Origin: Eledone cirrhosa
Lineage: Eukaryota
Direction of reading: 5' to 3'
Assembly (NCBI GenBank): GCA_964016885.1
Contig: OZ024742.1
Span: 172,484,001 to 172,548,000 of the forward strand
Length of the DNA stretch: 64,000 nucleotides
Shown here: one piece after another, positions 1 through 63,621 of the stretch
How the letters are laid out: each line of letters begins with the position of its first letter
Position numbering within the stretch: position 1 is the stretch's first letter
Made by a program: the position numbers and the translations under genes
Notes under the pieces: generated by a model
What the model was told of the DNA's origin: nothing
The model's database searches: none
What the model saw: the letters and a program-made list of their open reading frames with translations, nothing else

Positions 1-81
1 TGCAGTTTTTCCACGATTTCGTCTATTGGTGACCCCCGTTTCAAAGTAACTTATTCCGTGCAACGCCGGGTACCACTGCTA

Positions 82-82
<1 letters not shown>
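1..82 (+). mobile_element. 3' end of non-autonomous Helitron-like element
   Basis: Ends in an imperfect short hairpin (TCCGTGCAACGCCGGG) then CTAG|T into (TA)n; reverse complement matches the terminus at 54582-54660. Confidence 0.65.
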
Positions 83-180
<98 letters not shown>

Positions 181-184
181 TATA

Positions 185-270
185 TTAAAATAACAGATTA
201 AAGTTTACACAAATAATCGCTGCTTTCACCCTCTTTGGATTTTACTCTTCACGTTTATTATTATTACTAT
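185..270. repeat. Rearranged fragment of the pLTR-like repeat family also at 22330-22560, 24500-24627, 63622-63875
   Basis: ATTAAAATAACAGATTAAAGTTTA...CTTTCACCC joined to the reverse complement of GTAATAATAATAAA..TGAAGA..AAAATCCAAAGAG; flanked by (TA)n. Confidence 0.7.
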
Positions 271-330
271 ATATATATATATATATATATATGAAATTGG
301 AATAAATGCTCTGAAATAGCGATATATATG

Positions 331-591
331 TGAATATAGACATAGAATATTCGAAAATATTCTGTATGTTTATAATAAACATTTTGAAGACCTAATCGCT
401 ATAGAATAGAATACGTCACGTATTACAATTAGATTCTCGATAAAAGCAAGGGAAGTAATCGAATTGATTACTTCCCTTGCTTTTATCGAGAATCTAATTG
501 TAATACGTGACGTATTCTATTCTATAGCGATTAGGTCTTCAAAATGTTTATTATAAACATACAGAATATTTTCGAATATTCTATGTCTATA

Positions 592-595
<4 letters not shown>
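331..595. repeat. Perfect palindrome, 130-bp arms, 5-nt loop GAATT
   Basis: 331-460 is the reverse complement of 466-595, read directly. Confidence 0.95.
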
Positions 596-667
<72 letters not shown>

Positions 668-731
668 TATAGACATAGAATATTCGAAAATATTCTGTAT
701 GTTTATAATAAACATTTTGAAGACCTAATCG

Positions 732-1403
732 CTATAGAATAGAATACGTCACGTATTACAATTAGATTCTCGATAAAAGCAAGGGAAGTAATCAATTCGA
801 TTACTTCCCTTGCTCTCAATGATCATCTCCACACATCTTTTCACAGCAAAATCAATGTTAATGGATGGGTACAGTGACACCACATCCATGCTGCCTATTA
901 TGCAGTTGGATAGGCTCCTGTTTTTGTTGCACTCACTGATTCTGCTGAGGAGGTCCTCTGTACTTTCACATACATCTGGGGACATCTTGATTATGGGGCG
1001 TATAACCATTGAGAGGAAGTAGGAGATCCTGTAGTTGCTAGCTATATTAGCTCCGCATACAGGTCTTCTATAGAATAGAATACGTCACGTATTACAATTA
1101 GATTCTCGATAAAAGCAAGGGAAGTAATCAATTCGATTACTTCCCTTGCTCTCAATGATCATCTCCACACATCTTTTCACAGCAAAATCAATGTTAATGG
1201 ATGGGTACAGTGACACCACATCCATGCTGCCTATTATGCAGTTGGATAGGCTCCTGTTTTTGTTGCACTCACTGATTCTGCTGAGGAGGTCCTCTGTACT
1301 TTCACATACATCTGGGGACATCTTGATTATGGGGCGTATAACCATTGAGAGGAAGTAGGAGATCCTGTAGTTGCTAGCTATATTAGCTCCGCATACAGGT
1401 CTT
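732..1403. repeat. 336-bp tandem duplication (palindrome core + antisense PLE RT fragment)
   Basis: 732-1067 repeated at 1068-1403; 1149-1451 is the reverse complement of RT segment 4267-4569. Confidence 0.9.
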
Positions 1404-2307
1404 GTTGGTGGTCCTATTGTCGGGTCGTCGACTGTCTTGTGGTCTTTGCGGTACCTCATGGTACGACAACCAGAGATATCAGAGTGTCATGTTTGTGGAC
1501 GCCACCCCTGGAGGGAAATTAGCTAACCAGTGTAGAAAGGCCCTGAGAAAGACCCACTTAAAAATAAAGGTGGTAGAAAAGCCAGGAACCACCATAAAAT
1601 CCCTGATCAGCAAAACCTACCCTTTTAAGAAAACCCACTGTACCAATAGGAAATGTATCATATGTAAGGTGAACCCCCGGATAAACTGTAAAACTAGAAA
1701 CGTAGTCTATAGCATAAGATGTACAGAGGGTACTTGCAGAAACACGACAACAACATACATAGGTGAGACAGCTCGTAGCATAGGTGAAAGGATAGACCAA
1801 CACTGGGGGGAACTAAAAGGACGAAAAAACGGGTCAGTACTATACGAACATGCTAGACAACATCATGACGGTAACATAGACAACATAGAAATTAGAATAA
1901 TATCTAAACATAGGAATGACCCAGCAGATAGGCAAATCAGAGAGGCCAGTGAAATAGAAATTAGAAGACCAAAGCTAAACAGAAAGAATGAGTGGAACAA
2001 CAACAACACCCAAACAAACAACACTGACCTAAGAGAAGTATAAATAAATAAGTAAATTAAATTAAATAAAATAAGATAAATAAATACATACACAAGCACA
2101 TAAACACACACTAGTCACCCAGCAGACAACACTATACACACTAGTCACACATCACACATAACACTATACACACACGCAAACGCATGCGCAAAGAAGACAA
2201 AATAAAATAAGATAAACAAACAAGCAAATAAATAAATAAATATATAGACAGACTGAACAAAAAAAATGGCGTAGACATACAACACAACAGGAGGAACAAT
2301 GAATATA

Positions 2308-2350
2308 ACACCACTGACGATGTTGCAGATGTGCAACGAAAGATTTATGT
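2308..2350 (+). ncRNA. Hammerhead-like motif in upstream pLTR (second copy at about 6454-6496)
   Basis: CTGACGA-T-GTTGCA gatg TGCAAC-GAAA-GATT-TA; core and stem II are good, stems I/III weak. PLE pLTRs are known to carry minimal hammerheads. Confidence 0.5.
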
Positions 2351-2536
2351 AAACTATATATATATGTGTTTGTCTATATTGTATCTGTATTATTTTTGAC
2401 CGCCGGTCAGTCAATGGCAACATTGAGGACCGAGTAAGTTAGATCGCAGATATATATATATAAAAGACAGCGAGAAGCGAAAACCAACCAAACAGTGAGT
2501 GTGTTCTGTTATTAATTCTGGCAATATTACGCAAAT

Positions 2537-5500
2537 ATGACCCTCCCCAAATATAACAATATCTGTTTCGACACACGATTTCATATAAAAAACCTCGCAA
2601 AACTAATTCATCGCCGCTATGGCATTAGCTTGTGCCAAGCTGAAAGGTTATTGAAAGACACTGTTTTCTGTTATATAAAAACTACAATAACAACAGAACA
2701 AATCCGCTTCTTAAAACACTGTGTTTCCTCCAAAACATACACAACAAACATATCAAAACAAGTAAATAATTTATTATTGAACAAAACACAAGCTGAACGG
2801 CTAAAACACACAATAACAGTTAATATGAAAAGAACAACATACACAAAAGTCAACGCACTCTACAGACAAAAACGCATCAACGGTAAGGAAATCCGAAATC
2901 TCATCACAGCAAACGAGAGAGATGACTTCATGAGCGTCATCCGACGCGAAACGAAATATGCTCAAAACGAATGCTGTAGGCATTTCAAGAAGAAATTAGA
3001 ATGGATGAATAAGAAAAAACTACAAGAAAGGAAAATCGAATATTCTCAAAAATACCCAGATAACATCGACAACATCCGTATGAGTGATGTAAAACTACCG
3101 GAAGAATTTACCAATGACCACACAGTAAATATCTATGGGAACACTTTAATCAGTGAACAAGAACAACAAATCCTAAAGTTACCACCAAAATTTGCCATCT
3201 ACAAAAAGATTAATCCTATGGAATGCAAAACGGAGCTGGAAAAGTGTTTCACAAAAATACGTTGGAATGCAAAGGTAAACAACAACAACAATAATAACGG
3301 TAGTAGTAATATAAACAATAACTCTGGGTATAGAAATAACAGCCATAACCATAACAATGGCAGGAAAGTGAGAAATAGTGATAATGGTAATAATACTAGC
3401 GATAGACAGAACAACAACAACCACAATAATAATAATAATAGAAACGTTAACCACAGACACAGCAACAGTGACCACAGTAGTAATAACGGTAACAATACGA
3501 ACAACAACAACAACAATAACCACAGTGGTAATAATGGAAATAGTACATGTAGCAACATCAACAAAAACAAGAAACATAATAATAGTAACAACCACAATGG
3601 TAGAAATAGCAGTAACAACAACAATAACGGTGAAGTAAACAACAATACATCTAGCAATCATAACAATAATAATATTAATGCTAAGGATAGAAACAACAAC
3701 AACCACCATGATAACAATAATAGCAACACACACAACTATGACGATAGAAATAACGACAACCCCTTAGAGAAACTATTTTTCAACCCAGCTGACAAAACAT
3801 ATAAGATGGGTAATATCTATCCTACGAGGTTACCCTTTAATAAAAGAGTTTGCATACCACAACAAATAGATGACGAGACGGAGGCACAGTTCACCATAGC
3901 TAGAAATAAGATTAGACAAGTAGTAGACAGGTACACTATGAGACAGAGCAGACCAGAGGCCCAACAACTTGGGATAAAACCTGTAGAAGGCTTGGTTAGC
4001 CTCAAGCAGCGCACAAGGGATGGTGAGGTAGTGTGTCTACCCACAGATAAGTCTGGTAGGATGTCAATAGATAGCATGCCGAACTACATCGAGGCAATGC
4101 AACCCCACATCACCAACACGAGCGAAGTTGCACAACTAACACACGATGGGAGAGAAAAAATCCTCAACGCTCACATGATGATGTGGACTGACATCCTAAA
4201 GCCAAGCAGACGCACTGCCAACAACTTCCAGGCGTCTAACAATGGCATACCACCCTTGTATGGGCTCCGCAAAGACCACAAGACAGTCGACGACCCGACA
4301 ATAGGACCACCAACAAGACCTGTATGCGGAGCTAATATAGCTAGCAACTACAGGATCTCCTACTTCCTCTCAATGGTTATACGCCCCATAATCAAGATGT
4401 CCCCAGATGTATGTGAAAGTACAGAGGACCTCCTCAGCAGAATCAGTGAGTGCAACAAAAACAGGAGCCTATCCAACTGCATAATAGGCAGCATGGATGT
4501 GGTGTCACTGTACCCATCCATTAACATTGATTTTGCTGTGAAAAGATGTGTGGAGATGATCATTGAGAGTGAGGTGGAGTTCTGCGACGTCGACACAGAC
4601 GAACTGGGCCTCCTACTTAGACTTACCTACGACACTGACTACCTAGACAGCCATGACCTTAGATGTTTCTGCCCTAGTAGACCTATAAGAGGTAGACCCC
4701 CCACCATAACCTCAATGGCTAAAAAGACTCCCATAGGAAGGTGGATTGGGTGGACCAAAGCTATACGGACCCCCCAAAACACTGATCAGGTAAGAAAAAT
4801 GGTCGCACATGCAATAGGGGCTAGTATCAAAACTACCCTAAAGGGCCACATATTTAAGTTCAATGAGAAAATCTACACCCAAAATGAGGGAGCAGCCATC
4901 GGCGTCAGCATAGCTGGCGATGTTGCCAACCTTTTCATGGTATGGTGGGAAAGGAGACTTAAAGATCTCCTTAATGAAAGCTCCATAGACCTCATCATGT
5001 ACTCTCGTTATGTAGACGATATCAATATAGTTATAAGAACACCCCCACTAGAGAGCACTAACAAGTTTGATTTAGAACGTAGCACGATGGAAAGCATCCA
5101 GCAGATAGCTAATTCCATACACCAGAGTATAACTGTAACTATAGACTTCCCTTCCAAACACCCTAACAATAGACTACCTGTATTAGACACAGAACTCTGG
5201 ATTAACACTATAGACGAGAGAGCCCAAATTCTCCACTCACACTATGCTAAACCCATGGCCTCCAAATACCTGATACTCAAAAACTCAGCAATGTCCAGTA
5301 GTGCTAAGTTTAATATTCTGATCGCAGATTTGGTACGAGTGATGAAGAATGTGTCCAGCATGTGCGACCCAACAGAAATGGAAGGACACATCCAACACTT
5401 CATCAACCGCATGCAGTTCTCTGGCTACAACCAAAGAGACAGAGTCAGAGTATACGAAGGAGCCATGGAAAAGTATAAGACCCTCATAGAACTGGACATG

Positions 5501-6166
5501 AAAGGAATTTGCCCACTATACAGGAGCAAATCATGGAATAGCTTAGATAGGGCTAGACATAAGATAGGGAAGGCCACATCATGGTACGACAACCAGAGAT
5601 ATCAGAGTGTCATGTTTGTGGACGCCACCCCTGGAGGGAAATTAGCTAACCAGTGTAGAAAGGCCCTGAGAAAGACCCACTTAAAAATAAAGGTGGTAGA
5701 AAAGCCAGGAACCACCATAAAATCCCTGATCAGCAAAACCTACCCTTTTAAGAAAACCCACTGTACCAATAGGAAATGTATCATATGTAAGGTGAACCCC
5801 CGGATAAACTGTAAAACTAGAAACGTAGTCTATAGCATAAGATGTACAGAGGGTACTTGCAGAAACACGACAACAACATACATAGGTGAGACAGCTCGTA
5901 GCATAGGTGAAAGGATAGACCAACACTGGGGGGAACTAAAAGGACGAAAAAACGGGTCAGTACTATACGAACATGCTAGACAACATCATGACGGTAACAT
6001 AGACAACATAGAAATTAGAATAATATCTAAACATAGGAATGACCCAGCAGATAGGCAAATCAGAGAGGCCAGTGAAATAGAAATTAGAAGACCAAAGCTA
6101 AACAGAAAGAATGAGTGGAACAACAACAACACCCAAACAAACAACACTGACCTAAGAGAAGTATAA
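2537..6166 (+). CDS. PLE polyprotein: reverse transcriptase + GIY-YIG endonuclease, 1209 aa, uninterrupted
   Basis: PTDKSG, LYGLRKDHK, GSMDVVSLYPSI, QNEGAAIG, YVDD RT motifs; CxxxxCxxC linker (CTNRKCIIC); NVVYSIRC...YIGETAR...ERIDQH GIY-YIG; long insert between RT motifs A and B' as in Naiad/Chlamys PLEs; Asn-rich tract at about 3277-3760. Confidence 0.93.
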   Translation: MTLPKYNNICFDTRFHIKNLAKLIHRRYGISLCQAERLLKDTVFCYIKTTITTEQIRFLKHCVSSKTYTTNISKQVNNLLLNKTQAERLKHTITVNMKRTTYTKVNALYRQKRINGKEIRNLITANERDDFMSVIRRETKYAQNECCRHFKKKLEWMNKKKLQERKIEYSQKYPDNIDNIRMSDVKLPEEFTNDHTVNIYGNTLISEQEQQILKLPPKFAIYKKINPMECKTELEKCFTKIRWNAKVNNNNNNNGSSNINNNSGYRNNSHNHNNGRKVRNSDNGNNTSDRQNNNNHNNNNNRNVNHRHSNSDHSSNNGNNTNNNNNNNHSGNNGNSTCSNINKNKKHNNSNNHNGRNSSNNNNNGEVNNNTSSNHNNNNINAKDRNNNNHHDNNNSNTHNYDDRNNDNPLEKLFFNPADKTYKMGNIYPTRLPFNKRVCIPQQIDDETEAQFTIARNKIRQVVDRYTMRQSRPEAQQLGIKPVEGLVSLKQRTRDGEVVCLPTDKSGRMSIDSMPNYIEAMQPHITNTSEVAQLTHDGREKILNAHMMMWTDILKPSRRTANNFQASNNGIPPLYGLRKDHKTVDDPTIGPPTRPVCGANIASNYRISYFLSMVIRPIIKMSPDVCESTEDLLSRISECNKNRSLSNCIIGSMDVVSLYPSINIDFAVKRCVEMIIESEVEFCDVDTDELGLLLRLTYDTDYLDSHDLRCFCPSRPIRGRPPTITSMAKKTPIGRWIGWTKAIRTPQNTDQVRKMVAHAIGASIKTTLKGHIFKFNEKIYTQNEGAAIGVSIAGDVANLFMVWWERRLKDLLNESSIDLIMYSRYVDDINIVIRTPPLESTNKFDLERSTMESIQQIANSIHQSITVTIDFPSKHPNNRLPVLDTELWINTIDERAQILHSHYAKPMASKYLILKNSAMSSSAKFNILIADLVRVMKNVSSMCDPTEMEGHIQHFINRMQFSGYNQRDRVRVYEGAMEKYKTLIELDMKGICPLYRSKSWNSLDRARHKIGKATSWYDNQRYQSVMFVDATPGGKLANQCRKALRKTHLKIKVVEKPGTTIKSLISKTYPFKKTHCTNRKCIICKVNPRINCKTRNVVYSIRCTEGTCRNTTTTYIGETARSIGERIDQHWGELKGRKNGSVLYEHARQHHDGNIDNIEIRIISKHRNDPADRQIREASEIEIRRPKLNRKNEWNNNNTQTNNTDLREV

Positions 6167-6746
6167 ATAAATAAGTAAATTAAATTAAATAAAATAAGAT
6201 AAATAAATACATACACAAGCACATAAACACACACTAGTCACCCAGCAGACAACACTATACACACTAGTCACACATCACACATCACACATAACACTATACA
6301 CACACGCAAACGCATGCGCAAAGAAGACAAAATAAAATAAGATAAACAAACAAGCAAATAAATAAATAAATATATAGACAGACTGAACAAAAAAAAAAAA
6401 AAAAAAAAAAAATGGCGTAGACATACAACACAACAGGAGGAACAATGAATATAACACCACTGACGATGTTGCAGATGTGCAACGAAAGATTTATGTAAAC
6501 TATATATATATGTGTTTGTCTATATTGTATCTGTATTATTTTTGACCGCCGGTCAGTCAATGGCAACATTGAGGACCGAGTAAGTTAGATCGCAGATATA
6601 TATATATAAAAGACAGCGAGAAGCGAAAACCAACCAAACAGTGAGTGTGTTCTGTTATTAATTCTGGCAATATTACGCAAATATGACCCTCCCCAAATAT
6701 AACAATATCTGTTTCGACACACGATTTCATATAAAAAACCTCGCAA

Positions 6747-6848
<102 letters not shown>

Positions 6849-7110
6849 CGAGAGGAAGAGTGATATTTATGACATCTCAATACCATGCTGTGTTTCACGT
6901 TTAACTGATACTGCATCATCGAGTCGTATACTGCCCTTCTCAATGCTAACAGAAGTTAAATATTCGTAGAGTACTTTATCTATGGAATCAGCAGCGAATT
7001 AACACAATTCAACAAGCTTCATAGAGTAATCAAGAAAAATATATAATTATCAGCGTCTAACGTTTATTGAATTATTCAATCAAGACATCGAAGTGAATGC
7101 TATATATAAA

Positions 7111-7298
7111 TAATTGTTTCTACTTTAGGCACAAGGCCAACAATTATCCAGTGCATTACTGGTACTTTATTTTATCGACCCCGTAAGGATGAAAGGCGAA
7201 GTCAACCTCGGCGGGATTTGAACTCAGATCGTAAAGGGACGTAACTCTACGCTGCAAAGAATGGCGTCTGACCCTCTACAGATACTGCCAATCCACCA
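7111..7298 (-). mobile_element. tRNA-derived SINE
   Basis: Minus strand has an A-box-like TGGCAGTAT start and B-box GAGTTCAAATCC; multi-copy in window. Confidence 0.8.
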
Positions 7299-7499
7299 TC
7301 ATATATATATATGTTACGTATTTCCGTGGAAAAGGTAAAGGAAAGAAGAGTGTTCTATGTACACTACACAGATATTTAATGTTTAGGTAATATGCAAACA
7401 CAAAACAATGAATAAACTTAAATAACTCTTTAACTAAGATGACGGTAATTGTGAATAAAAGAAAAAGAGAGGTTATATGTCTTAATCCGTATGGTGAGC

Positions 7500-8200
7500 A
7501 AATTGGGTCCCACGTGGGGGCCTCCCCACAGCTCCCGCGGAAAGAATGGAGGAAGCGTTGCCCCGGAGGATTGTCAGGGAGATGCGTTGGAAGAGCCTTT
7601 CCAACTCGCGAAGCTCATAACTGCCGCTGGCCAGCTCAGCCCATATGGTGGCGAATAAGGAGGTAACCCTATGGCCAAGGACACCAGAAGTCTCCACTGC
7701 CAAGGGTACGACCACGAACCTGTTGGAGAGCGACCGGTACTTGGAGAGTTTGGTCTCCTCAGCCCGACATGCAGAAGTACCTGGCTTAGTCGCAGACTGC
7801 ACCAGGTTGCGACTGCAGAATGTGTCGCTGCAAGTGGCATCCCAGACGAGGGGTATGCCACCGCGGAACGGGAAGATGGTCATACCGTCTGGCCTTTTTT
7901 GCCGCCCCTCGGTCCAGCCCCACCGGCTCGAGCTGGGAGACGAAGCCTGCAGCCTCCAAGCCATGCTTTATGACCACGTTCAGGGAAGCATGGCGTGGCA
8001 GGCGGCAGGCACTGTGGCGACAGGAAAGCGGGTGGAGGCCGAAAGAGTCCAAGCTCGAAGGAATTGTCGATGCGCAGGCTATCGTTATCCACCTGCGAGC
8101 AAGTGGAGAAGGAGGGCAAGGCATGTAGCCAGGAAGCACTTTGGGGTTTGGAGGCTGCGCGAAAATAGGCAAGGCGGTGCTGGTCGAGCTGGCACGTGAG
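7500..8200 (-). pseudogene. Frameshifted 3' fragment of an RLE-type non-LTR retrotransposon (CRE-like)
   Basis: WLHALP, RHASLN, LEPVGLDRG, KRPDGMTIFPF..LVWDATC, VPLAVETSG, FQRISLTILRGNA split over several frames; GC-rich island. Confidence 0.75.
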
Positions 8201-8356
8201 CCTGTCTGAAGCCAGGCTGCACTGGGTGGAATCCCAAATATCTATAATATATCCATATTTAAGTTGATGAGCCATATCAATCGTTTCTGTTAGAATCGTC
8301 TAACTTCGCGAAACCTTCGGTAATTGTATAATTATATTGTGTTATGTATTACATAA

Positions 8357-8388
<32 letters not shown>

Positions 8389-8984
8389 AACTCACCACCC
8401 CTACACACATGTATTTATACATTCACATGTATATATATTTATACATTCACATGTGTATATATATATACATGTTAGCGTATATTACTTATATTACATAGCA
8501 ACTAGTCATACGATTTTCTTGGTACTCTTAGTTTCATTATATGCTTTTATTAATCGTAGGAGATTAATGATCTGGGGACCATCAATTTGTAGGTTTTCGT
8601 AGAACACATGCTTCCGACCTCATACTGTCGTAAACGCAATTCACTCGTGTATCTTCAGTGTATATATATAACACACACAAATAACATATATATCAAATAC
8701 ACTCACATATTACCATACACAAATACATGTTTAAATTATATAAATCAGCATGAATATTTATTTCATTTCATAAATGTTCTTTGTTTTTGCATAGTGTTAT
8801 GTATATATGAGTGGGCGGTGGTTTGGTACGTTTCTAATTTCAAATCTGCCCATATTTATTACATGTCAATTATAATGCGTAGTTCCGTGTCGAGTTAGAT
8901 TTTAATCGTTTTCAACATCTGCATCGTTTCTAACAGATCTTTTCACTTTCAGACCGTATGTAAAATTGATGTACTAAGAATCCT

Positions 8985-9170
8985 AATTATTTCTACTTTT
9001 GGCACAAGACCACAATTAACCAGTGCATTACTGGTACTTTATTTTATCGACCCCGTAAGGATGAAAGGCAAAGTTAACCTCGACGGGATTTGAACTCAGA
9101 ATTGCAAGGGCCGTAACTTTATGCGTCAAAGCATGTCGTCTGACCCTCTACCGATACTGCCAATCCACCA
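8985..9170 (-). mobile_element. tRNA-derived SINE
   Basis: Same family as 7111-7298. Confidence 0.8.
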
Positions 9171-18739: not shown

Positions 18740-21700
18740 TGGCGGATCCACAGATGGCTATGTAAACATACATACGCCAATCCTCGATAAGAGTGTTTAA
18801 ATATCGAACATAAACAGTTCGAATAACGGTGAAATGGAGACTAGAACGTCATGTGACAGACTCTCACCCAACAGGTGCCCCCTGGCTCAGCAGCAGGAAC
18901 CTGACTGTCAACCAAATACTGCTGATGTTGGAGGAAGAAGAAGAAGGAAAGGGGCCAGAACCAACTGGATGAAAGAATTGAATAGAACTGTTATGCAATG
19001 CTACCTGAAAAGTAACCCCAAGGAGAGGGGCTACAGGAGACGGATGCATAACATCTGGAACGAGATTGGTTTATTTAAATTAGATGAACAAAAATTGGCC
19101 GGGCAGGCTCGGGTAATAAGAACTAATGGGTGGATAAGCGAGCTGGAACTGGAGGAACTGAGCAGAGAGAATGGCTTGGAGATGGCGGGTGTAGTATGCC
19201 AGACAAGCGAGCCGGCGGGAAATGAAGGTGAGGAGGTCCTGAGAACGGAGGAACCACCCGAAGCAGACAATGATCTGAATACTGAGATAAATAATACCTG
19301 GAACAGAGATACGGCCACTGAGGAGATGAATGCTGACGGGCTAGGACAAGATTCGGTTGACATCCTAAATTTAGTGGTAGATGAGTTGAACAATGATAGT
19401 GGGAGACCTATGAACCTAAGATTTGTAGACAGGAAAAAGTTAAAAGAAACAACAGCTAAGGTAAACAAAGTCATCCCATACCTTGAGGCGAGGAGTCTTC
19501 ACCAGTGCAACAATATCCTCAAAGCAACAGCAAATACGGTGAGGAAACTACTTGGTATAAAAGCGAGAGGAAACAACAGACAAGAAAGAGCAGAGCCGTG
19601 GTGGAAGAAGCGACTGAGTGGGCAAATCGGGGAAATGAGAAATGACATAGGAAAGCTTGAGTCACTACTGAATGGGACACTAAAAAACATAGGCACTAAA
19701 AATAGACTGGAAATAAAATACAAAACTAGGAGTAAAAAGCTAAATATTATCATAGAGAAATTGAAGCAACGCATTGTAGCAAAGAGTGCCAAAATCAGGC
19801 GATACGAGAACAGAGTCAGTCAGTATAAACAGAACCGCATGTTCGACAACAACCAGAAGATGCTGTTTGGACAGCTTGAGGGGAAAGAAAGAGGCAACGA
19901 CTTGATCCCTGGGGCGGAACAAGCTAAAACATTCTGGAGAGGAATATGGGAGCAGGATGTTAGACACAATGCCCAGGCAGGGTGGATTGAGACAGTACAG
20001 AGGGAGATCGGTGAGCAGGCACAGCAACAGACTGATTTGAGTATCACAGTTGAAACTCTTAAGGGGCAAGCCAAAAAACTAACCAACTGGAAATCACCAG
20101 GCCCAGATGGTGTGCAGGGGTATTGGATTAAACATTTAACATCCCTCCACCCGAAGCTGACGGCCATGTTCAATGACTGCTTGGTGTCGGGTGAGGTGCC
20201 AGAGTGGTTGACAAAAGGTACTACAGTTCTGATAATGAAAGACCGAATCAAGGGTAATGATGTTACCAACTATAGACCTATCACATGTCTGCCCGTAATG
20301 TGGAAACTGTTGACGAGCATTGTGTCTGAGGAAATCTACCATCACCTCCACACAAACAACTTGTTGCCGGACGAACAGAAAGGATGCCGAAAGAAGTCAC
20401 GTGGTACAAAGGACCAGTTGCTTATTGATAAGATGGTAATGGGGAATTGCAGGAGGAGACACACTGATCTTGCCATGGGATGGATAGACTACAGAAAGGC
20501 ATTTGACATGGTGCCTCATTCCTGGATCACCAAAAGCCTGGAGATCTTCAGGGTGGCAGATAACATCAGACAGTTGCTGGGCAGGAGTATGGGGTCCTGG
20601 GAGACAGAGTTGACATCAACTGGAGTATCCTTGGGAAGCGTGAAGATCAAGAGAGGTATCTTCCAGGGAGATAGCCTGTCTCCTCTGTTGTTTGTCCTTG
20701 CCCTGATGCCCTTGACCATTATGCTGCGAAAAGTGAGAGCAGGATACAAGTTGGGAAGGGGAGAGCTTACCATCAATCACCTCCTCTTCATGGACGATCT
20801 TAAGCTCTTCGGGAAAAGTGAGAAGGAGTTGGATGTGCTTGTTGACACTGTCCGTATTTTCAGCAGTGATATATGTATGCAGTTTGGTATTGGTAAATGT
20901 GGAGTCATTGTGATGAGGAGGGGTAGGTTGAGCAGAAATAACGGGATCCAGATACCAACAGGTGAGATGATAAAGGAAATTGACTCTGAGGAAGGATACA
21001 AGTATTTGGGCGTTCTGGAGGCTGATGGCATAAAGAACAAAAAAATGAAGGAATTGTTAAGAACTGAATACATTCGGAGAGTAAGGAGCGTATTGAAGTC
21101 ACATCTGAACAGCAGAAATGCCATAAGCGCAGTAAATTCCCGAGCTGTGTCTATTATTAGGTACAGTGCGGGAATTCTGAGATGGAATGTTGCTGAACAA
21201 AAAGAAATGGATAGGAAGACTAGGAAGCTATTGACTATCTACAACATGTTCCACAAGAGGAGTGATGTCGATAGACTCTACCTAAGGAGATCTGAGGGTG
21301 GAAGAGGTCTTATCAGCATAGAGGACTGTGTTCGGATGGAGAAAAACAACCTATACAAATACGTGACCTATAGTAAGGAGCCAATGCTCAGAGCTGTACT
21401 GAAGGAGGGGACAGTAGGCCAGGGGATACCCAAGGAGGAAATAACATCAAGGAGGAAGAGCAGCCTTAAGGGAAAATCCCTTCATAGTACCTTCTTTGAG
21501 AAAACTGAATTTAGAGATCCACAGACATGGAACTGGTTGAGAAGAGGAGACCTCAAAAAGGCTACAGAAGGAATGCTAATGGCTGCGCAGGAGCAGGCCC
21601 TCAAAACGAAGTGGTTGAAGCACCATATCTACAAGGAGGAGGCTAGCCCACTGTGCAGGATCTGTGGAGAGAGAGAGGAGACTGTGGCTCACATTGTGTC

Positions 21701-22301
21701 CGAGTGTAAACACCTAGCCCAGACCCACTATAAGGGCTGGAGACACGATGTGATGGGCAGGGTGATCCACTGGCACCTGTGCAAAGTAAACAATCTACCA
21801 CATTCTGAGAAATGGTATGAGCATAGGCCAGAGGCAGTGATGGAGAACAGTCAGGTGAAGGTGCTGTGGGATTTTAGGATACAGACGGACAAAAAACTGG
21901 AACACAATAGACCTGACCTGGTGGTTGTGGACAAAGAAAAAAGATCGTGCCTGATTGTGGATGTGGCCTGCCCGTTCGACACGAGAGTGCAAGAGAAGGA
22001 GAGGGAGAAAATTAACCGATACCAGGACCTAAAGTGGGAGGTGAAAAGGATTTGGAACTGCCATGAAGTCAAAGTGATCCCGATTGTCATAGGCGCACTG
22101 GGGACTATCTCCAAAGGTTTCCAGGGATGGTTAAAGAAAATCGGCCCCTTCACGCTTTTTGGAACGCTTCAAAAGGCATGCTTGCTTGGAACGGCAAGAA
22201 CCCTCCGATACGTCCTGAATATCTGAGGCTGCAGGTAGTGGCTTGATATTCAATCCAACGGACTTTCCAGTTAACCAAAATCAATGACTGAGATTCAAGG
22301 A
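18738..22301 (+). mobile_element. Apparently full-length R4/Dong-clade non-LTR retrotransposon in (TAA)n
   Basis: Single RT-RLE ORF with short UTRs between (TAA)n tracts; Dong elements are known TAA-repeat targeters. Confidence 0.85.
18834..22226 (+). CDS. RT + CCHC zinc knuckle + restriction-like endonuclease, 1130 aa, uninterrupted
   Basis: KSPGPDG, YRPITCL, WIDYRKAFD, GIFQGDSLSP, LLFMDDLKL, YKYLG; [36 protein letters not shown]. Confidence 0.95.
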   Translation: METRTSCDRLSPNRCPLAQQQEPDCQPNTADVGGRRRRKGARTNWMKELNRTVMQCYLKSNPKERGYRRRMHNIWNEIGLFKLDEQKLAGQARVIRTNGWISELELEELSRENGLEMAGVVCQTSEPAGNEGEEVLRTEEPPEADNDLNTEINNTWNRDTATEEMNADGLGQDSVDILNLVVDELNNDSGRPMNLRFVDRKKLKETTAKVNKVIPYLEARSLHQCNNILKATANTVRKLLGIKARGNNRQERAEPWWKKRLSGQIGEMRNDIGKLESLLNGTLKNIGTKNRLEIKYKTRSKKLNIIIEKLKQRIVAKSAKIRRYENRVSQYKQNRMFDNNQKMLFGQLEGKERGNDLIPGAEQAKTFWRGIWEQDVRHNAQAGWIETVQREIGEQAQQQTDLSITVETLKGQAKKLTNWKSPGPDGVQGYWIKHLTSLHPKLTAMFNDCLVSGEVPEWLTKGTTVLIMKDRIKGNDVTNYRPITCLPVMWKLLTSIVSEEIYHHLHTNNLLPDEQKGCRKKSRGTKDQLLIDKMVMGNCRRRHTDLAMGWIDYRKAFDMVPHSWITKSLEIFRVADNIRQLLGRSMGSWETELTSTGVSLGSVKIKRGIFQGDSLSPLLFVLALMPLTIMLRKVRAGYKLGRGELTINHLLFMDDLKLFGKSEKELDVLVDTVRIFSSDICMQFGIGKCGVIVMRRGRLSRNNGIQIPTGEMIKEIDSEEGYKYLGVLEADGIKNKKMKELLRTEYIRRVRSVLKSHLNSRNAISAVNSRAVSIIRYSAGILRWNVAEQKEMDRKTRKLLTIYNMFHKRSDVDRLYLRRSEGGRGLISIEDCVRMEKNNLYKYVTYSKEPMLRAVLKEGTVGQGIPKEEITSRRKSSLKGKSLHSTFFEKTEFRDPQTWNWLRRGDLKKATEGMLMAAQEQALKTKWLKHHIYKEEASPLCRICGEREETVAHIVSECKHLAQTHYKGWRHDVMGRVIHWHLCKVNNLPHSEKWYEHRPEAVMENSQVKVLWDFRIQTDKKLEHNRPDLVVVDKEKRSCLIVDVACPFDTRVQEKEREKINRYQDLKWEVKRIWNCHEVKVIPIVIGALGTISKGFQGWLKKIGPFTLFGTLQKACLLGTARTLRYVLNI

Positions 22302-22329: not shown

Positions 22330-24624
22330 TATTAAATTTGAAGACTAAAATCCAAAGAAGGCTCGATAAGGATAAATATATATGAAATATGTAAGAAACT
22401 TAGAGCAAATATTTATTAAAATAACAGATTAAAGTTTACGCAAAGAATCGCTGCTTTCACCCTTAACGGGATCTTTTGAAACTAACAAAGTCGATCAGTA
22501 AACGCAGAAGTGGATATTTCAAAAAACGTTTTAAACGGAGGAAGACAGGAAGACGATACTTTGTTTCGTGCAAACGTTCCATGGCAAAGAAAGGGAAAAA
22601 ACGAATATAATACGTCATATGTGGAGCGTGGAGAATAATTGCACGCAAAGACAAAACCACGTAAATGGTATAGCTGAAGTCGTAGACTAAATTCTAACTA
22701 GGAAACCGAATGAATCTCCGCTTCAGATTTAACAATAAAGTAAATAAATACAATACAGAGGTAATAGAAATTAAATAAATACATACACGCATACAAATAC
22801 GTACATACACAAGCACACTTGAAAACACTTACCATAGGTTTACAAAACCACGCACAAATAAATGTGTGTGTGTGTGCGTGTATACAAATAAATAAATAAT
22901 TAAATAAACGTATATAAATAAATAAATACGTATATAACAAGCGCACACACACATCTGCCTGTAAATACACAAATGTTCGGAGACGTAAGTCAACCAAAAC
23001 ATGCTGTACACATATACACACACCCTACATACGAACGAACCGGCATACTCACACAGATGCAAAACTCCAGTATACACATAACCAAACCATATGTACCAGC
23101 ATATATAAAATTATACGCCATAACATATACAATCAAATATACGTACGAGAAAGTATACGTACCTTCACAAAACATACAGGTAATATATATTTACCTATGC
23201 AAATAAGTAATGGTATAAACAAAACATATACTTAGCTACCATATCAAGACGTAACATATCCACGTATAGATCGTACTATCCGTTAAGATATAACGTGGGG
23301 CTGTAATACAGGAAAGTGTTGTGCAATTTATGTTTACAAGCCGGAATTGCCTCAGATTTTTTTTATTTAATATGTTGTCTGTGGCGTAGAGTATTTCCAG
23401 GGCCTCAGCTTACATGGTCTTTTATTTACGTTATACGATCTCGCCCTAGCTAGGATTTCCCAGTGTAACTTATATTGGGTGTGGTTATCTTTTAGACTCC
23501 AGATATAAGCTGAAAGTGACGTCATATTCCTTCTTAGAGGGTTACGGAAAGAATGGGTATGCATGTAAAGACGCTGCTTGAATCTATTGGCGGTTAACCC
23601 TATGTAGGTCCTACGGGACATGGGTCTTTCAACCTTACATTTGTAGACAATGTTACTAGAGAGGCATTTCCGGGATAGGGGGCAATCAACCCAACTCCTA
23701 CAATTACAGTTAGTAGAAACTACAGGGTTAAACGTGTTCCTACGGCTAGGTAGTTTAGCTAAATTAGAAGCTGTGATGTTATGTGCAAGGTTAGGAGTCG
23801 TAGAGTAAGACATTTTAATAGTAAACCTATTAAAAATGTTACTATGTTTATGTGTAGGGGGAAAATATTTCGTAATAAGGGAAAGAAAGATCTTAGCTAA
23901 TGGTGTGGCCACCTCCATATTATATGGTGGGTTACACCAACAAATGCGACGGGATCTATTTCTTCTAGGTCTATTTTCGTACTCTGTATATGCTACCTTA
24001 TCGACAAATCCACTCCGAGCAAGAGCTTCATTGTAATAAGTGGAATGGTCGTTGAAAATATGCTCGTTAGTAGATAGAAGGGAAAGCCTCAACGAAACGT
24101 TTCTTACCAGGTTCTTGGTTATGCTGGCAGGATGGTTGGAATGCTTACTTATGTAATTAAGCGTATCATTCGGCTTTCTATACGGGTAATACAACCCATT
24201 CGATAAATTGAGGGCAACGTCGAGATAATTAACGACCGAGTGATTGGGCTCAACCTGTATAGAGATGTTGAAGCCTTTAAAGAAGGCTGTGAGTTCTTTT
24301 CTGAACCTGTCGCACGCACAAGGTCCGTCTCTATGAACCACCTAATAGAACATTAGTCTACGACCCCTTTTATACCATAAACGTGGTTCTGTCTTTGCTC
24401 GTAATTGTTATTCACCGCTCCTATGTTTGACGTATTATATTCGTTTTTTCCCGTTCTTTGCCAGGGAACGTTTCCACGAACCAAAGTATCGTATTCTTGT
24501 CTTCCTCCGGTTGCAACGTTTTTTGAAATATCCACTTCTGCGTTTACATATTGACTTTGTTAGTTTCAGAAGAGCCCGTTAAGGGTGAAATCAGCGATTC
24601 TTTGCTTAAACTTTAATCTGTTAT

Positions 24625-24627
<3 letters not shown>
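22330..24627 (-). mobile_element. 5'-truncated Penelope-like element of a different PLE lineage, with inverted pLTR
   Basis: Minus-strand ORF remnant; about 22405-22530 inversely repeated at about 24516-24627; right end abuts (TA)n. Confidence 0.8.
23367..24341 (-). pseudogene. PLE RT-thumb + GIY-YIG fragment
   Basis: NYLDVALNL..YRKPN..SNHP, WCNPPY, CNCR..CPL..CL..IVYKC..YIGLT..FKQR; no catalytic RT core present. Confidence 0.85.
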
Positions 24628-24671
<44 letters not shown>

Positions 24672-57953: not shown

Positions 57954-58508
57954 CGTTTCTGAATTTGTTTAGCAAGATTCTTTATCTGAAATCGTGTGTT
58001 GAAACCGATATTGTTATACTTTGGGAGGGTCATGTTGCCAATAAGAAACACACGCACCAGTTGCTTTCACTTCAATTTAATTTATTAAATATTTATAAAT
58101 TTACAAATTTATAAATTTCTGGTTGGTTGGTTGGTTCCACAACCAGATAGTTGTTTATATATATATAGTCATAGTTCTTTCGTCACACACTCTGTGACCT
58201 CTTGAGTGACTGGGGATTTCTTTCTTCGTTTCTGTGCCTTTCCTTTCTTCTATCCTACGCCATTTTGTTTGTGTGTGGGTTGCGTGCTCAGTTTGCGCAT
58301 GCGCCACATCCGGGTGTCTGTGTGTGTTTGTGTTCATTTTTCTATTTTTCTATTTATATTTTTCTATTTGTTTGTTTATTTATTGTTGGTTGGTTGTTTG
58401 TTCTATGTGTGTGTGTGTTTTCATTTTGTCTTGTGTGTGTTTTCATTTTGTGTGTGTTTTCAATTGTAAGTTGTTTGTTCTATGTGTGTGTGTGTTTTCA
58501 TTTTGTCC

Positions 58509-61417
58509 TTAATTGTAAGTTGTGATGTTGCTGTTCCACTCATATTTTCTATTTAATTTTGGTTTTAATTCTTTTATGCTTACTGCCTCTGTAATTTGCC
58601 TAAACATTTCGTCTTTCTTGTGAGTGGATTCTATTTTTATTTCTATGCTCTCTAATTTACCCCTGTGTTCTATCTTAGCATGTTGGTAGAGCACAGATGA
58701 TTCTTTACTATCTTGGAGGTCTCGCCAGTGTTCATTTATTCGTTCCCCTATACTACGAGCTGTCTCACCTATGTACACTACATTTTTGTTTCTACATTGT
58801 CCTTCAGTACATCTTATGCTATATACTACATTTCTAGTTTTACAGTTAATATGGGGGCTTATTTTACAGGTTATACATTTCTTATCTATACATGAGGGTC
58901 TTTGGAACGGGTATGTCTTGCTAATAAGTGTTTTTACGGAGGTACCAGGTCTTTCTACTATCTTAATATTGAGATTATGTTTCTTTAGGGCCCTTCTAAA
59001 TTTGTAGGCTAGTTCGCCTCTAGGGGTTGTATTGATGAACATTACACTCTGGTATTTATTGCTATCATACCATGAGTTTATTCTATTGGCCTTGTTCTTA
59101 GTTCTTTCTATTCTATTCCAAAATTTGCTCCTATACAAGGGGCAGGTCCCATTTATGTCATTATTTACCATTTTTTCCCATTTGGTTCTGGCTCCTTTAT
59201 ACACTCTGATTCTATCTCTCTGATTGTAGCCAGAGAACTGCATACGGTGGATGAAGTGTTGTATGTGTCTCTCTAGTTCTTCGGGGTTGCACATGCGGGA
59301 CACATTTCTCATCACCCGTACCAAATCCGCAATCAGTATGTTGATTTTGGTATGGTCCGAAATGGCCGAGTTTCGGTGGATCAGATGTTTGGAAGTCATG
59401 GGTTTGGCATAATGGGAATGGAGGATTTGTTTTTGGTTGTTAATAGTATCTAACCAGAGCTCTGTGTCTAGTACAGGTAATCGATGGTTGGGGTGTCTAC
59501 TTGGGTAGTCTATAGTAACTCTAATGCTCTGGTGGATGGAGTCTGCTATTTGCTGGATGCTTTCCATTGTGTTTTTCTCTAGTTCCTGACTGTTCTTTAG
59601 TGGGGGTGTCTTAACTACGATGTTTATATCATCTACGTAGCGGGAGTACATTATCAGGGTTAAGCTGTCTTCTAATTGTTCATTAAGTTTTTGTTTAAGT
59701 CTACTGTCCCACCATACCATGAATAAGTTAGCTATGTCGCCTGCAATGCTAACACCAATGGCTGCTCCTTCCTCTTGGGCATATGTTTTACCATTAAATT
59801 TGAACATATGTTCCTTAAGGGTTAATTTTATGCTGGCCCCTACCGCATGTGCAATCATTTTCTTCAGTTCATCGTGTTTTCGGGTGTCCGTATGGCTCTG
59901 GTCCACCCGTTCCATCTATCTGTGTGGGTTTTCTTGGCCATTGAGGTAATGGTAGGTGGTCGCCTCTTGCTGGTCTTGTAGGGCACAGGTTGCTAGGGTC
60001 ATAAGTGTCTAGGTAACTATTACTATGGGTAAGCTTAAGTAGAAATCCCAGCTCACTGGTATCAATCCCACGGAACTCAACCTTGCTCTCGCTGATCATT
60101 TCGACGCATTTCTCCACAGCAAAATCCACGTCAATAGATGGATACAGGGACACAACATCCATACTGCCTATTATGCAGTTTGTTAGGTCCCCAGATCGGT
60201 TACCCGCGCCGATTCTGCTGAGGAGGTCCTCCGTGCTGTCACACACATCTGGGGACATCTCAATGATGGGGCGTATGATCAGGGAGAGGAAGTAGGACAG
60301 TCTGTAGTTACTAGCAATGTTAGCCCCACAGACTGGCCGTGTTGGTGGTCCCGCGACAGGGTCCCAGCCCGTTTTATGGTCTTTACGAAGCCCATACAAC
60401 GCCGGCACGTCATTGTTCCAGGCCTGGAAGTTGTTGGCAGTCCTTTTGTTGGGCTGCATTATATTTGTCCACATCACCATATGGGCATTGAGGGTTTTTT
60501 CTCTATCCTCATGCTCCTGTGGTGTTACCTCTCTTGTGTTAGTGATGTGGGGTTGCATTGCCTGGATGTAGTTTGGCAGGCTGTCAACCGACATTCTGCC
60601 AGTCTTGTCTGTTGGAAAGCATGCTATCTCTCCATTACGCGAGCGCTGCATGAGCTTACGCAAGCCATTTGCAGATTCTTCTCCCAGTTGCTGGGCCTCT
60701 ATTCTATTATGCTTCTTGCTATACTGTTCTATAATATTTCTAAGTTCGGATTTAGCTATACTAAATTGTGCCTCTGTTTGTTCATCGACCTGCGACGGCA
60801 ACTGCGTGCGTTTGTTAAATGGCAAAGTCGTGGCGTGGACTCGTCGTAGGTCGAATGATTTATCGGAGGGGTTATAAAACGGAGAGTTCCAGGATGCTGC
60901 TTTATGTGTACTAGTGCTATTGTTACTGTTAGTTGTGTTGTTTCTATTTCCACCAACAGCAGCAGCCTCAGCTTCATGGTTGTTTCTATGTCTCTCATAA
61001 TTACTCCTGTCTCTTTCCACTGGCTCAATGTTGTTATCTACCCTATTTTGTGTGTCTGTGTGTTCGTCTCGGTTATTCTCTTTGTCCTTAGTCTCCCATC
61101 TCCTTTTCCTTTTCCTTTTAATCCTATTACTTTCTCTTATTTCTCTGATTTCTGTGCTACTGTCATTACTTGTTTTCTGTGTCTGTGTGTTTGTTAAGAT
61201 TGTGGTGGTGGTGAGAGGCATTGAATGCGTGTGTGTTGTTGTTGTTGATGTGTGTTGTTGTTGATGTGTGTTGTTGTTGTCTCCGTGTGTGTGTGTGTTA
61301 TCGTTGTTGTGTGTGTTGTTATTGTTGTTTGTGTTTGCGTGTCTGTTGTTGTTGTATCTGGGTATGTTGCTATTGTTGTTGTTGTTGATGTGTGTGTTGT
61401 TGTTATTATTGTCTCCG
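58509..61417 (-). pseudogene. 5'-truncated RT + GIY-YIG ORF with frameshifts
   Basis: PTDKTG, GSMDVVSLYPSI, YVDD, NVVYSIRC..YIGETAR; alignment to element 1 implies 1-nt deletions near 59961 and 59874. Confidence 0.85.
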
Positions 61418-61429
61418 TTTCGTAAATGA

Positions 61430-63081
61430 TTTACGAAACTACGCTGGAGCATCAACAACAAAAACAAAAGCAACAATATACGCACACACATATACAACAC
61501 ACATCCCAACAACAACAGACACACAGACACAAACAACAATAACAACAACAATAGCAACATACCCAGATACAACAACAACAATAGCAACATACCCAGATAC
61601 AACAGACACGCAGACACAAACAACAATAACAACACACACGGAGACAATAATAACAACAACACACACATCAACAACAACAACAATAGCAACATACCCAGAT
61701 ACAACAACAACAGACACGCAAACACAAACAACAATAACAACACACACAACAACGATAACACACACACACACGGAGACAACAACAACACAAATTTAATGGT
61801 AAAACATATGCCCAAGAGGAAGGAGCAGCCATTGGTGTTAGCATTGCAGGCGACATAGCTAACTTATTCATGGTATGGTGGGACAGTAGACTTAAACAAA
61901 AACTTAATGAACAATTAGAAGACAGATTAACCCTGATAATGTACTCCCGCTACGTAGATGATATAAACGTCGTAGTTAAGACACCCCCACTAAAGAACAG
62001 TCAGGAACTAGAGAAAAACACAATGGAAAGCATCCAGCAAATAGCAAACTCCATCCACCAGAGCATTAGAGTTACTATAGACTACCCAAGTAGACACCCC
62101 AACCATCAATTACGTGTACTAGACACAGAGCTCTGGTTAGATACTATTAACAACCAAAAACAAATCCTCCATTCCCATTATGCCAAACCCATGACTTCCA
62201 AACATCTGATCCACCGAAACTCGGCCATTTCGGACCATACCAAAATCAACATACTGATTGCGGATTTGGTACGGGTGATGAGAAATGTGTCCCGCATGTG
62301 CAACCCCGAAGAACTAGAGAGACACATACAACACTTCATCCACCGTATGCAGTTCTCTGGCTACAATCAGAGAGATAGAATCAGAGTGTATAAAGGAGCC
62401 AGAACCAAATGGGAAAAAATGGTAAATAATGACATAAATGGGACCTGCCTCTTGTATAGGAGCAAATTTTGGAATAGAATAGAAAGAACTAAGAACAAGG
62501 CCAATAGAATAAACTCATGGTATGATAGCAATAAATACCAGAGTGTAATGTTCATCAATACAACACCTAGAGGCGAACTAGCCTACAAATTTAGAAGGGC
62601 CCTAAAGAAACATAATCTCAATATTAAGATAGTAGAAAGACCTGGTACCTCCGTAAAAACACTTATTAGAAAGACATACCCGTTCCAAAGACCCTCATGT
62701 ATAGATAAGAAATGTATAACCTGTAAAATAAGCCCCCATATTAACTGTAAAACTAGAAATGTAGTATATAGCATAAGATGTACTGAAGGACAATGTAGAA
62801 ACAAAAATGTAGTGTACATAGGTGAGACAGCTCGTAGTATAGGGGAACGAATAAATGAACACTGGCGAGACCTCCAAGATAGTAAAGAATCATCTGTGCT
62901 CTACCAACATGCTAAGATAGAACACAGGGGTAAATTAGAGAGCATAGAAATAAAAATAGAATCCACACACAAGAAAGACGCAATGTTTAGGCTAATTACA
63001 GAGGCAGTAAGCATAAAAGAATTAAAACCAAAATTAAATAGAAAATATGAGTGGAACAGCAACATCACAACTTACAATTAA
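61430..63081 (+). pseudogene. Internally deleted PLE ORF (Asn-rich region joined to RT motif B', then GIY-YIG)
   Basis: Starts FTKLRW (cf. FTKIRW in element 1), Asn-rich repeats to about 61788, then jumps to KFNGKTYAQEEGAAIG. Confidence 0.85.
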
Positions 63082-63384
63082 GGACAAAATGAAAACACAC
63101 ACACACATAGAACAAACAACTTACAATTGAAAACACACACAAAATGAAAACACACACAAGACAAAATGAAAACACACACACATAGAACAAACAACCAACC
63201 AACAATAAATAAATAAATAAACAAACAAATAGAAAAATATAAATAGAAAAATAGAAAAATGAACACAAACACACACAGACACCCGGATGTGGCGCATGCG
63301 CAAACTGAGCACGCAACCCACACACAAACAAAATGGCGTAGGATAGAAGAAAGGAAAGGCACAGAAACGAAGAAAGAAATCCCC

Positions 63385-63429
63385 AGTCACTCAAGAGGTC
63401 ACAGAGTGTGTGACGAAAGAACTATGACT
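63385..63429 (+). ncRNA. Hammerhead-like motif in pLTR with CUCAAGA core (mirror copy at about 58167-58211, minus)
   Basis: AGTCA-CTCAAGA-g GTCACA gagtg TGTGAC-GAAAG aa CTA-TGACT; all stems formed but core G5 replaced by C. Confidence 0.55.

Positions 63430-63580: not shown

Positions 63581-63621
<41 letters not shown>

Follow-up and report, generated by a model that had tools for sequence, protein, structure and literature searches.

Structure of the locus

The window analysed here is a stretch of 64,000 nucleotides from Eledone cirrhosa, and the locus under study lies at its left end. Reading rightwards, stubs of other TA-associated repeat families form the left neighbour (186-267; the segments 84-232 and 228-292 match the window at 63.6-64.0, 22.3-22.5 and 24.6 kb with 84-95% identity) and precede a (TA)12 run (268-292), which we take to be the left target remnant of a retrozyme insertion. 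One arm of this retrozyme, arm a', lies on the minus strand (293-460) and the other, arm b, on the plus strand (466-595), the two being linked by the filler GAATT (461-465, plus strand). There follow a (TA)35 run (595-664), presumably the left half of a PLE target, a minus-strand copy of 445-595 (664-814), and an antisense piece of the RT region of the PLE (813-1067, minus strand; element 4569 to 4315, 100% over 255 nt). An exact tandem second copy of 732-1067 then occupies 1068-1403 (plus strand) and carries 83 nt of the fold-back, the loop, the junction and the RT piece, so that a second antisense piece runs from 1149 to 1451 (minus strand; element 4569 to 4267, 100% over 303 nt). After four filler nucleotides, the element continues on the plus strand with a 5'-truncated partial tandem copy, the pLTR (1456-2605; element 5579-6750, one mismatch and two gaps over 1176 columns), an open frame (2516-6166) and a 'tail' (6709-6750), and it ends against (TA)34 followed by (AG)n (6750-6817), the right half of the target.

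The open frame comprises 1216 codons from stop to stop and, judged by its motifs, encodes an Asn-rich insert, an RT with DKSG at 511 and YVDD at 832, a CX4CxxC linker and, at the C-terminus, a GIY-YIG domain. The core of the latter reads YSIRCTEGTC...YIG at 1106 with two internal Cys, which His 1137 and His 1153 complete to a CCHH arrangement, and CTNRKCIIC at 1083 corresponds to the CX2-5CxxC linker between RT and EN. According to the clade definitions given in PMC8557442, CCHH with two Cys in the GIY-YIG core is absent in Hydra, and the linker is absent in Penelope/Poseidon; the motifs therefore point to an EN+ PLE of the Neptune/Nematis type and not to Hydra, 'Neptune' serving here as a motif-based label. 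A search for similar proteins gave 79 homologues, the best being a hypothetical protein of Octopus vulgaris (69%). Pfam returned no match for the 1216-codon protein and scored RVT_1 and a weak GIY-YIG for the distant homologue P0080 alone; a sequence search of the PDB gave 0 matches, and comparison with the frame at 23367-24341 of the window gave nothing significant. The Asn-rich insert covers about 160 codons ahead of the RT (3270-3760) and resembles the N-rich inserts described for rotifer PLEs (PMC3846280). A candidate minimal type I hammerhead, CTGACGA-stem-GAAA, was read in the pLTR (6460-6502, plus strand, with a second copy at 2314-2356); its stem II folds and the region has a z score of -0.41.

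The PLE family is abundant, young and TA-anchored: 771 exact tail-plus-TA ends occur in the genome, and all 40 RT matches that were scored are 100% identical. At our locus the insertion shows pLTR, inverted 5'-truncated copy, one-sided tail and (TA)n target, and it shares these, together with the Asn-rich insert, the linker and the CCHH EN, with the EN+ PLE insertions described in PMC8557442 and PMC3846280. It differs from them at the outer end of the inverted piece, in whose place stands a mirror copy of adjacent DNA, and in the duplication of the resulting junction. Three further elements were noted in the window: a second, related PLE (58008-63588, about 71% DNA identity) with inverted arms of 1395 nt at 99% and a longer Asn/Thr-rich insert; an intact, LINE-like RT frame of 1141 codons with RVT_1 and a weak zf-RVT (18801-22226); and, after that frame, a TA-flanked element with inverted ends and a 324-codon frame containing a YIG motif (22409-24636).

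The left flank belongs to a dispersed hammerhead repeat

The flanking DNA to the left of the PLE, of which the preliminary description speaks, is not unique. A search of the animal's own genome (3.0 Gb) with 331-470 gave 17 matches, including four other loci at 98-100%, where the sequence belongs to a tandem unit of 310 bp (34.5% GC) in arrays of up to about 20 units, and both 293-460 and 466-595 are pieces of this unit. Each unit contains CTGATGA, a short helix II, GAAAC-GC-GTA and a long helix I, the elements of a type I hammerhead, with a fold z score of -6.52. A low-GC tandem unit of 150-450 bp with one type I hammerhead per unit is among the defining features of non-LTR retrozymes, and by its sequence we assign the 310-bp repeat to this kind; the same combination is described for metazoan non-LTR retrozymes (Cervera and de la Pena, 2020, PMC7229834; Li et al., 2026, 10.64898/2026.07.22.740005). 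Of helix I, the 3' strand alone is present in the window, so that the locus itself lacks a complete ribozyme. Rfam reported no hammerhead family for 1-8000 of the window; its 15 matches all fell below the gathering score and were mostly to hairpin miRNA models. The retrozyme and the pLTR of the studied PLE show no similarity. Genome searches using the end of the pLTR or the remainder of the retrozyme unit, in a search that passes over common words, gave no matches.

Numbering the retrozyme from the base after the predicted hammerhead cleavage site, 293-460 corresponds to nt 168 down to 1 in antisense and 466-595 to nt 1 to about 130 in sense, both arms being 100% identical to copies elsewhere. 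The palindrome at 322-604 thus consists of two retrozyme arms placed head to head and meeting at the predicted 5' end of the RNA. We mapped 12 other retrozyme loci, a non-random set comprising the four from the search above and eight picked through cleavage-base variants, and 11 of them have the same head-to-head layout. Where both outer ends were visible, nine of ten arrays ended at nt 139 on one side and nt 164-170 on the other, nearly all against TA, and the tenth ended at 165 twice. This pairing of a tail-less with a longer end parallels the one-sided tail described for PLEs (PMC8557442; PMC11167929). As the pair in the window, 168 and about 130-139, obeys the same two-end rule, we read 293-595 as a complete earlier insertion, its tail-type end against the (TA)12 run and its tail-less end running into (TA)35.

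Other explanations of the segment were set aside. A palindromic MITE at 322-604 is ruled out, the loop junction occurring at this locus only and the arm continuing elsewhere into the 310-bp unit; carriage of the retrozyme segment as cargo by the source PLE is ruled out by the private loop and by its absence from all 31 PLE loci mapped against the retrozyme. The arrays at L081 and L082 carry array-specific variants common to all units of both arms, a pattern that fits copying from one small monomer template, as far as the sequence goes. In five retrozyme arrays (among L079-L082 and L202-L209), almost every unit carries T or G at the cleavage base. An A-to-C change at this base, considered as a copying error at the ligation site, was found once in each of three arrays that the search itself had selected, exactly the three C variants among 65 non-A matches genome-wide, and the idea was dropped. 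To the left of the retrozyme array at L079, an older TA-centred palindrome of a SINE-like repeat (3735-4824, 88%) was observed, with a third inverted copy on the right.

A perfect fold-back copy of the flank across the TA run

The segment 664-814 is the exact reverse complement of 445-595 (151/151, 0 mismatches), giving a perfect palindrome at 445-814 whose centre is the middle of the 70-nt TA run. The loop between the retrozyme arms reads GAATT at 461-465 and AATTC at 793-797, and a direct-copy alignment at offset 333 mismatches at 461, 463 and 465 and at 330. A 25-mer spanning the loop has three matches in the 3.0-Gb genome, all at this locus (451-475 plus, 784-808 minus, 1120-1144 minus). 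Because the loop is confined to one locus, the copy at 664-814 must be both local and inverted; and since fresh retrozyme cDNA would lack the loop and a direct copy would give GAATT, the template was the plus strand of 445-595. The copy then passes into the antisense RT piece at element position 4569 with a two-nucleotide CT overlap at 813-814, five of seven nucleotides matching over 808-814. The inverted repeat around the TA run, its flipped loop and the CT switch, all described from the letters alone in the preliminary description, are thereby borne out. Element-adjacent sequence taken from the opposite strand of nearby target DNA, one of the marks of R2-type snap-back, is present here. A missing C at the edge of the TA run (596/663) had been considered as a second private mark and was rejected, because the retrozyme array at L205 has an identical end.

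The fold-back is a real feature at the level of the assembly. A chimeric read folding at the TA run, or a mis-collapsed 336-bp repeat, might in principle produce it, and the perfect palindrome at a long TA run is a point in favour of this. Contigs and one RAD-seq run, which are short and probably derive from other individuals, were compared with 1-2700, and none bridged the loop copy, 814/815 or 1067/1068; four contig sets from two samples, likewise short and probably from other individuals, were compared with 770-1112, where again none bridged and 794-805 stayed uncovered. No empty allele was seen. Against an artefact speaks the return to forward sequence, which takes place through three distinct junctions with microhomology or filler, and similar private fold-backs of differing lengths at four loci on another chromosome (see below) would all have to be artefacts as well. 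We therefore regard an assembly or sequencing error as highly unlikely.

We lean, without strong conviction, towards the reading that 664-814 arose while the PLE was being inserted: the left (TA)n end would have folded back on itself and, before switching to PLE sequence, have copied 150 nt of the strand to which it belonged.

The flank/PLE junction is duplicated

The exact repetition of 732-1067 at 1068-1403 (336 bp), which the preliminary description did not mention, means that both the loop and the flank/PLE junction occur twice. At 1067/1068 there is no overlap that could count as microhomology. The inversion junction contains the filler TACC (1452-1455), read from the junction and complementary to GGTA 4 nt downstream; it is possibly a mini snap-back templated by GGTA, or may be due to chance. 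With the flank/PLE junction present twice, one strand must have been copied from the other, and the 336-bp duplication suggests that both ends were extended before they were joined. The fold-back as first inferred thus stands in one part, the private loop supporting a local inverted copy, and is to be corrected in another, as the duplication needs more than a single simple switch. The sequence is compatible both with snap-back of the top strand and with invasion by the bottom strand; the duplicated junction would favour extension of both strands.

The duplication also bears on a different order of events, in which the end of the PLE cDNA did the copying: after the pLTR this end would have reversed onto the cDNA itself (4267 to 4569), entered the left flank at 445 through 2 nt of microhomology and copied toward the TA run. 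This yields the same sequence from a single pass, the TACC filler fits a self-priming cDNA end, and the process matches the R2 class, where the 3' end of the cDNA is described as priming on cDNA or nearby rDNA (PMC11371274). It requires, however, that the identical 4569/445 junction arose twice and that a jump took place at 1067/1068 with no homology, and we consider it improbable.

Ends of other insertions of the same PLE

To place the locus among its relatives, we collected 111 stretches around copies of the PLE. Of these, 31 cover the 40 RT matches, and the other 80 come from among the first 100 tail-plus-TA ends in the list of 771, all 80 lying on the two largest contigs. Among 84 other young insertions with both ends resolved, 63 pair one outward end at about 6708 with one at 6750-6765. 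In one of the others both ends are of tail type, 13 show a plain 5'-truncated end, and in seven an outward end lies at an internal position. In the window, the inverted arm does not begin at the tail-less terminus but at the internal position 4569, behind the flank copy; given the 63 paired insertions, the fold-back stands where the 6708 end would be expected. The longer arm may lie on either side, and at L051, L055, L073 and L076 neither arm contains the other. Such variable arm lengths and non-nested arms fit priming from both target ends.

The seven insertions with an internal outer end, several of which abut unrelated repeats, lend some support to a later switch: the PLE would have arrived with the usual arm (6708 to 4267), and a fork or break at the TA run or palindrome would subsequently have copied 150 nt backwards and re-entered the element at 4569, with about 2.1 kb lost and 336 bp duplicated. 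The inner inversion junction (4267/5579) indeed looks like the family norm, AT/TA repeats are described as fragile sites, and template switching at forks is described as giving inverted copies (PMC12972899, PMC10766183). All pieces are 100% identical, though, which leaves little time between two events, and this reading too receives little credence from us.

The end survey likewise speaks to the idea of one composite insertion spanning 293-6750, in which the left end would have begun by priming on retrozyme RNA, have turned back two times on its own new strand and then have jumped to PLE RNA. The retrozyme arms are as young as the PLE, being 100% identical to other copies, and at L082 a piece of the pLTR of the studied PLE, 100% identical, is found close to a retrozyme array. 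A composite would, on the other hand, have tail-type ends on both sides (168 and 6750), an arrangement seen in one of the 84 PLE insertions and one of the ten retrozyme arrays; the central (TA)35 would have to be synthesised; and none of the other fetched arrays is joined directly to the studied PLE. We judge a composite origin very unlikely.

Several unusual junctions were noted on the way. At L065:4257-4355, a 66-nt hairpin of the pLTR start of another PLE family, followed by AATT, is joined directly to the 5' end of the studied PLE, possibly a cross-family template switch. A SINE-like repeat, also present at 7100-7290 of the window, is joined directly to truncated PLE ends at L122, L144, L151 and L162, in three of the four within a few bases of one repeat position. 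At L125 (G000:C1:42149461-42150348), four tail-plus-TA ends follow each other at intervals of about 270-300 bp. This short series of pLTR ends in tandem may be a nascent retrozyme-like array or the result of repeated insertion at a single site.

Other TA-centred fold-backs

We then surveyed 963 kb, the 111 stretches plus 1-9000 of the window, for further palindromes centred on TA; this sample is biased toward PLE neighbourhoods, so that a genome-wide rate cannot be derived from it. Perfect palindromes with arms of at least 10 nt were centred on 12 of 2305 TA runs. Six of the 12 (the window, L070, L154, L179, L137 and L162) have complex arms of at least 25 nt that are not two copies of the end of the studied PLE, and the other six have microsatellite arms, short arms or tail-to-tail PLE ends. 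By a looser rule, mirrored arms occurred at 10 of 1330 TA tracts, whereas 20 random left/right pairings gave 0-6 (mean 2.4). In raw numbers this is a modest excess, and it is the privacy tests that carry the case.

The clearest parallel is L154, where a perfect 109-nt arm ends no more than 3 nt from the 5' junction of a copy of the studied PLE and a 26-mer from the arm has two matches in the genome, both at the locus. The survey of 5' junctions that had been proposed thus yielded a private, TA-centred fold-back at a PLE junction, and the statement that no other insertion shows flank inversion, which would have told against the original idea, does not hold. A flank fold-back is present in one of the 84 other young insertions (L154), or one of 20 among those without two outward element ends, and a rough hand estimate puts the chance coincidence at L154 at about 2% (714 of 2305 TA runs lie within 600 nt of a block end). 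Copying by the cDNA end would explain L154 directly, its arm being joined to a plain 5'-truncated end.

At L070, about 80 nt of flank is mirrored across TA22 and followed by another TA-anchored family entered about 25 nt inside its usual end; the private half matches this locus only among the 40 scored of 3080 candidates. At L137:7746-7900, beyond TA42, the last 23-25 nt are mirrored three times with the copies separated by TA, and the mirrored sequence is the end of a related PLE (about 57% protein identity) just after its hammerhead; this looks like repeated snap-back. Both the iterated, TA-separated copies at L137 and the near-3'-end entry at L070 fit a self-priming TA end better than a cDNA end that invades the flank. 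L162 (an arm of 25 nt) and L179 (an arm of about 70 nt by visual reading) have private arm patterns, with two and three matches, all local. L070, L137, L162 and L179 do not abut the studied PLE family, and four fold-backs away from its ends are a point for a later switch at the TA run; the fold-backs at L154 and L070 end at or near an element end, which would be unexpected for a later independent event.

Side observations from the survey concern mirrored sequence of other kinds. L070:6252-6634 contains a perfect TA-centred palindrome of 358 bp in which a piece of the flank/element junction is also present in the left arm, which parallels the window's 336-bp duplication. At L178 (about 6420-6440 and about 7055-7075), about 20 nt of the flank on the left is inverted beyond a normal two-ended PLE insertion, and at L145, similarly, 20 nt of a repeat tail are mirrored between TA runs. 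Tail-to-tail PLE ends flank a single TA run at L197:1331-1476, L201:4950-4990 and L173:2522-2601; these are a second route to TA-centred palindromes, without flank copying. Mirror compound microsatellites of the forms (TC)n(TA)n(GA)n and (CA)n(TA)n(TG)n were seen at L178:6133-6252, L173:187-298 and L169 and could derive from TA snap-back onto an adjacent microsatellite.

Older palindromes in the window

It had also been suggested that the same process might have given rise to the older, microsatellite-centred palindromes. Only three of the 17 listed local inverted-repeat rows in the window are centred on a TA run, namely the fold-back locus, 37.7-37.9 kb and 38.3-39.9 kb. The largest, at 38.3-39.9 kb, has arms belonging to a dispersed family with 1570 candidates. 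Compared with the majority of 19 dispersed copies, its arms have no shared differences, nine restricted to the left arm and three restricted to the right, and they are 97.3% identical to each other compared with 97.5-99.3% to the 19 copies. Lacking shared private variants and being no closer to each other than to other copies, the arms fit two independent insertions, and the extension to older palindromes is unsupported in this case. An outer flank of 74 nt is mirrored too, with six mismatches, so that an old fold-back is possible. Among the other inverted-repeat rows, many are short TA-flanked hairpins that look like element stubs placed head to head.

Proposed mechanism

The preferred reading, a left target end that folded back during PLE insertion, can be laid out in four steps. 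In the first, whose product is visible although its order is proposed, PLE machinery would have placed the 310-nt retrozyme into (TA)n as two head-to-head arms, both stopping at the predicted 5' end of the self-cleaved RNA and linked by GAATT. In the second, a Neptune-type PLE would have cut both strands of the TA run on the right, and the right end would have primed normally at the tail site (6750) and have copied one full unit plus the pLTR. In the third, the left 3' end would not have primed at the tail-less 6708 but have annealed to itself via (TA)n, copied arm b followed by the loop and 17 nt of arm a', jumped through two nucleotides of microhomology to element position 4569 and run on to 4315. 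In the fourth step, the weakest, the right-hand strand may have turned back at 4267 and copied the left-hand strand through the new junction for 336 nt, and blunt joining at 1067/1068 would have left the tandem duplication. The DNA-templated steps could be due to the PLE RT or to a host repair polymerase. In snap-back SD-MMEJ and pol theta templated insertion, a break end forms a hairpin on an inverted repeat, copies its flank and rejoins by microhomology, so that an inverted repeat is left behind, with templating described within about 50 bp (PMC9303309); the 150 nt copied here exceed that distance, which weakens the host-repair version and leaves the RT version untouched.

It is tempting to generalise further. 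In this broader proposition, which we put forward tentatively and hold to be doubtful, the cut (TA)n of Neptune-type PLEs would self-prime, so that their own RT regularly copies 20-150 nt of flank, sometimes repeatedly, before moving on to element RNA; perfect TA-centred palindromes would be supplied continually by PLE activity, and our locus would record both target ends extended and copying each other.

Relation to known systems

Much of what is seen here has precedents. Inverted PLE copies, tails and TA targeting are already known (PMC8557442, PMC3846280), as is snap-back onto nearby target DNA for R2, for end-joining and in effect for L1. The palindromes described in PMC8557442 and PMC3846280 lie at the inner inversion junction and are not fold-backs of flank across the target. 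In vitro, the PAc Poseidon protein cuts and extends both target strands, and the tail is delimited by two start sites (Frangieh et al., 2024, PMC11167929); these sites resemble the 6708 and 6750-6765 ends of our PLE and the ends at about 139 and 164-170 of the retrozyme, albeit in a different clade, and that work, as described in PMC11167929, does not report DNA-templated fold-back of a target end. For R2 (PRINT), snap-back 5' junctions carry an inverted copy of the cDNA or of nearby target, and flank can be joined to antisense element (Zhang et al., 2024, PMC11371274); in that system, priming is attributed to the 3' end of the cDNA and the target is rDNA without repeats, whereas the fold-back in the window has the self-complementary (TA)n target as its axis. 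Among the foldbacks and templated insertions linked to L1 (PMC11702581), the foldbacks described are of chromosome scale, unlike the fold-back in the window. Our search of the open-access literature brought up no description of a PLE whose target end folds back across (TA)n; the figures or supplements of PMC8557442, PMC3846280 and PMC11371274 may show such cases.

For the retrozyme, mobility dependent on PLEs has been proposed (PMC7229834; 10.64898/2026.07.22.740005). The head-to-head arrays and the PLE-type tail found here are, as far as we could find, reported in neither of these sources, and the words 'octopus' and 'inverted' have 0 occurrences in the main text of PMC7229834. Recently active PLEs are listed for Octopus vulgaris in PMC13282606, in the text of which 'ribozyme' and 'retrozyme' do not occur. 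A retrozyme bearing the tail signature of PLEs is sequence evidence for PLE-driven retrozyme mobility.

How PLEs acquire their tandem and inverted structures and complete the second strand is an acknowledged open question (PMC8557442; PMC11167929). The locus contributes a private loop whose strand can be read, which shows that one end copied neighbouring DNA and not element RNA. Only repeat DNA is involved, and as there is no host gene, a phenotypic effect is unlikely. Together with L154, L070, L137, L162 and L179, the locus predicts that (TA)n targets give DNA-templated hairpin products in vitro, so that one step of PLE integration becomes testable. If the proposed mechanism is true, TA-targeting PLEs would seed perfect palindromes at sites that are already prone to breakage.
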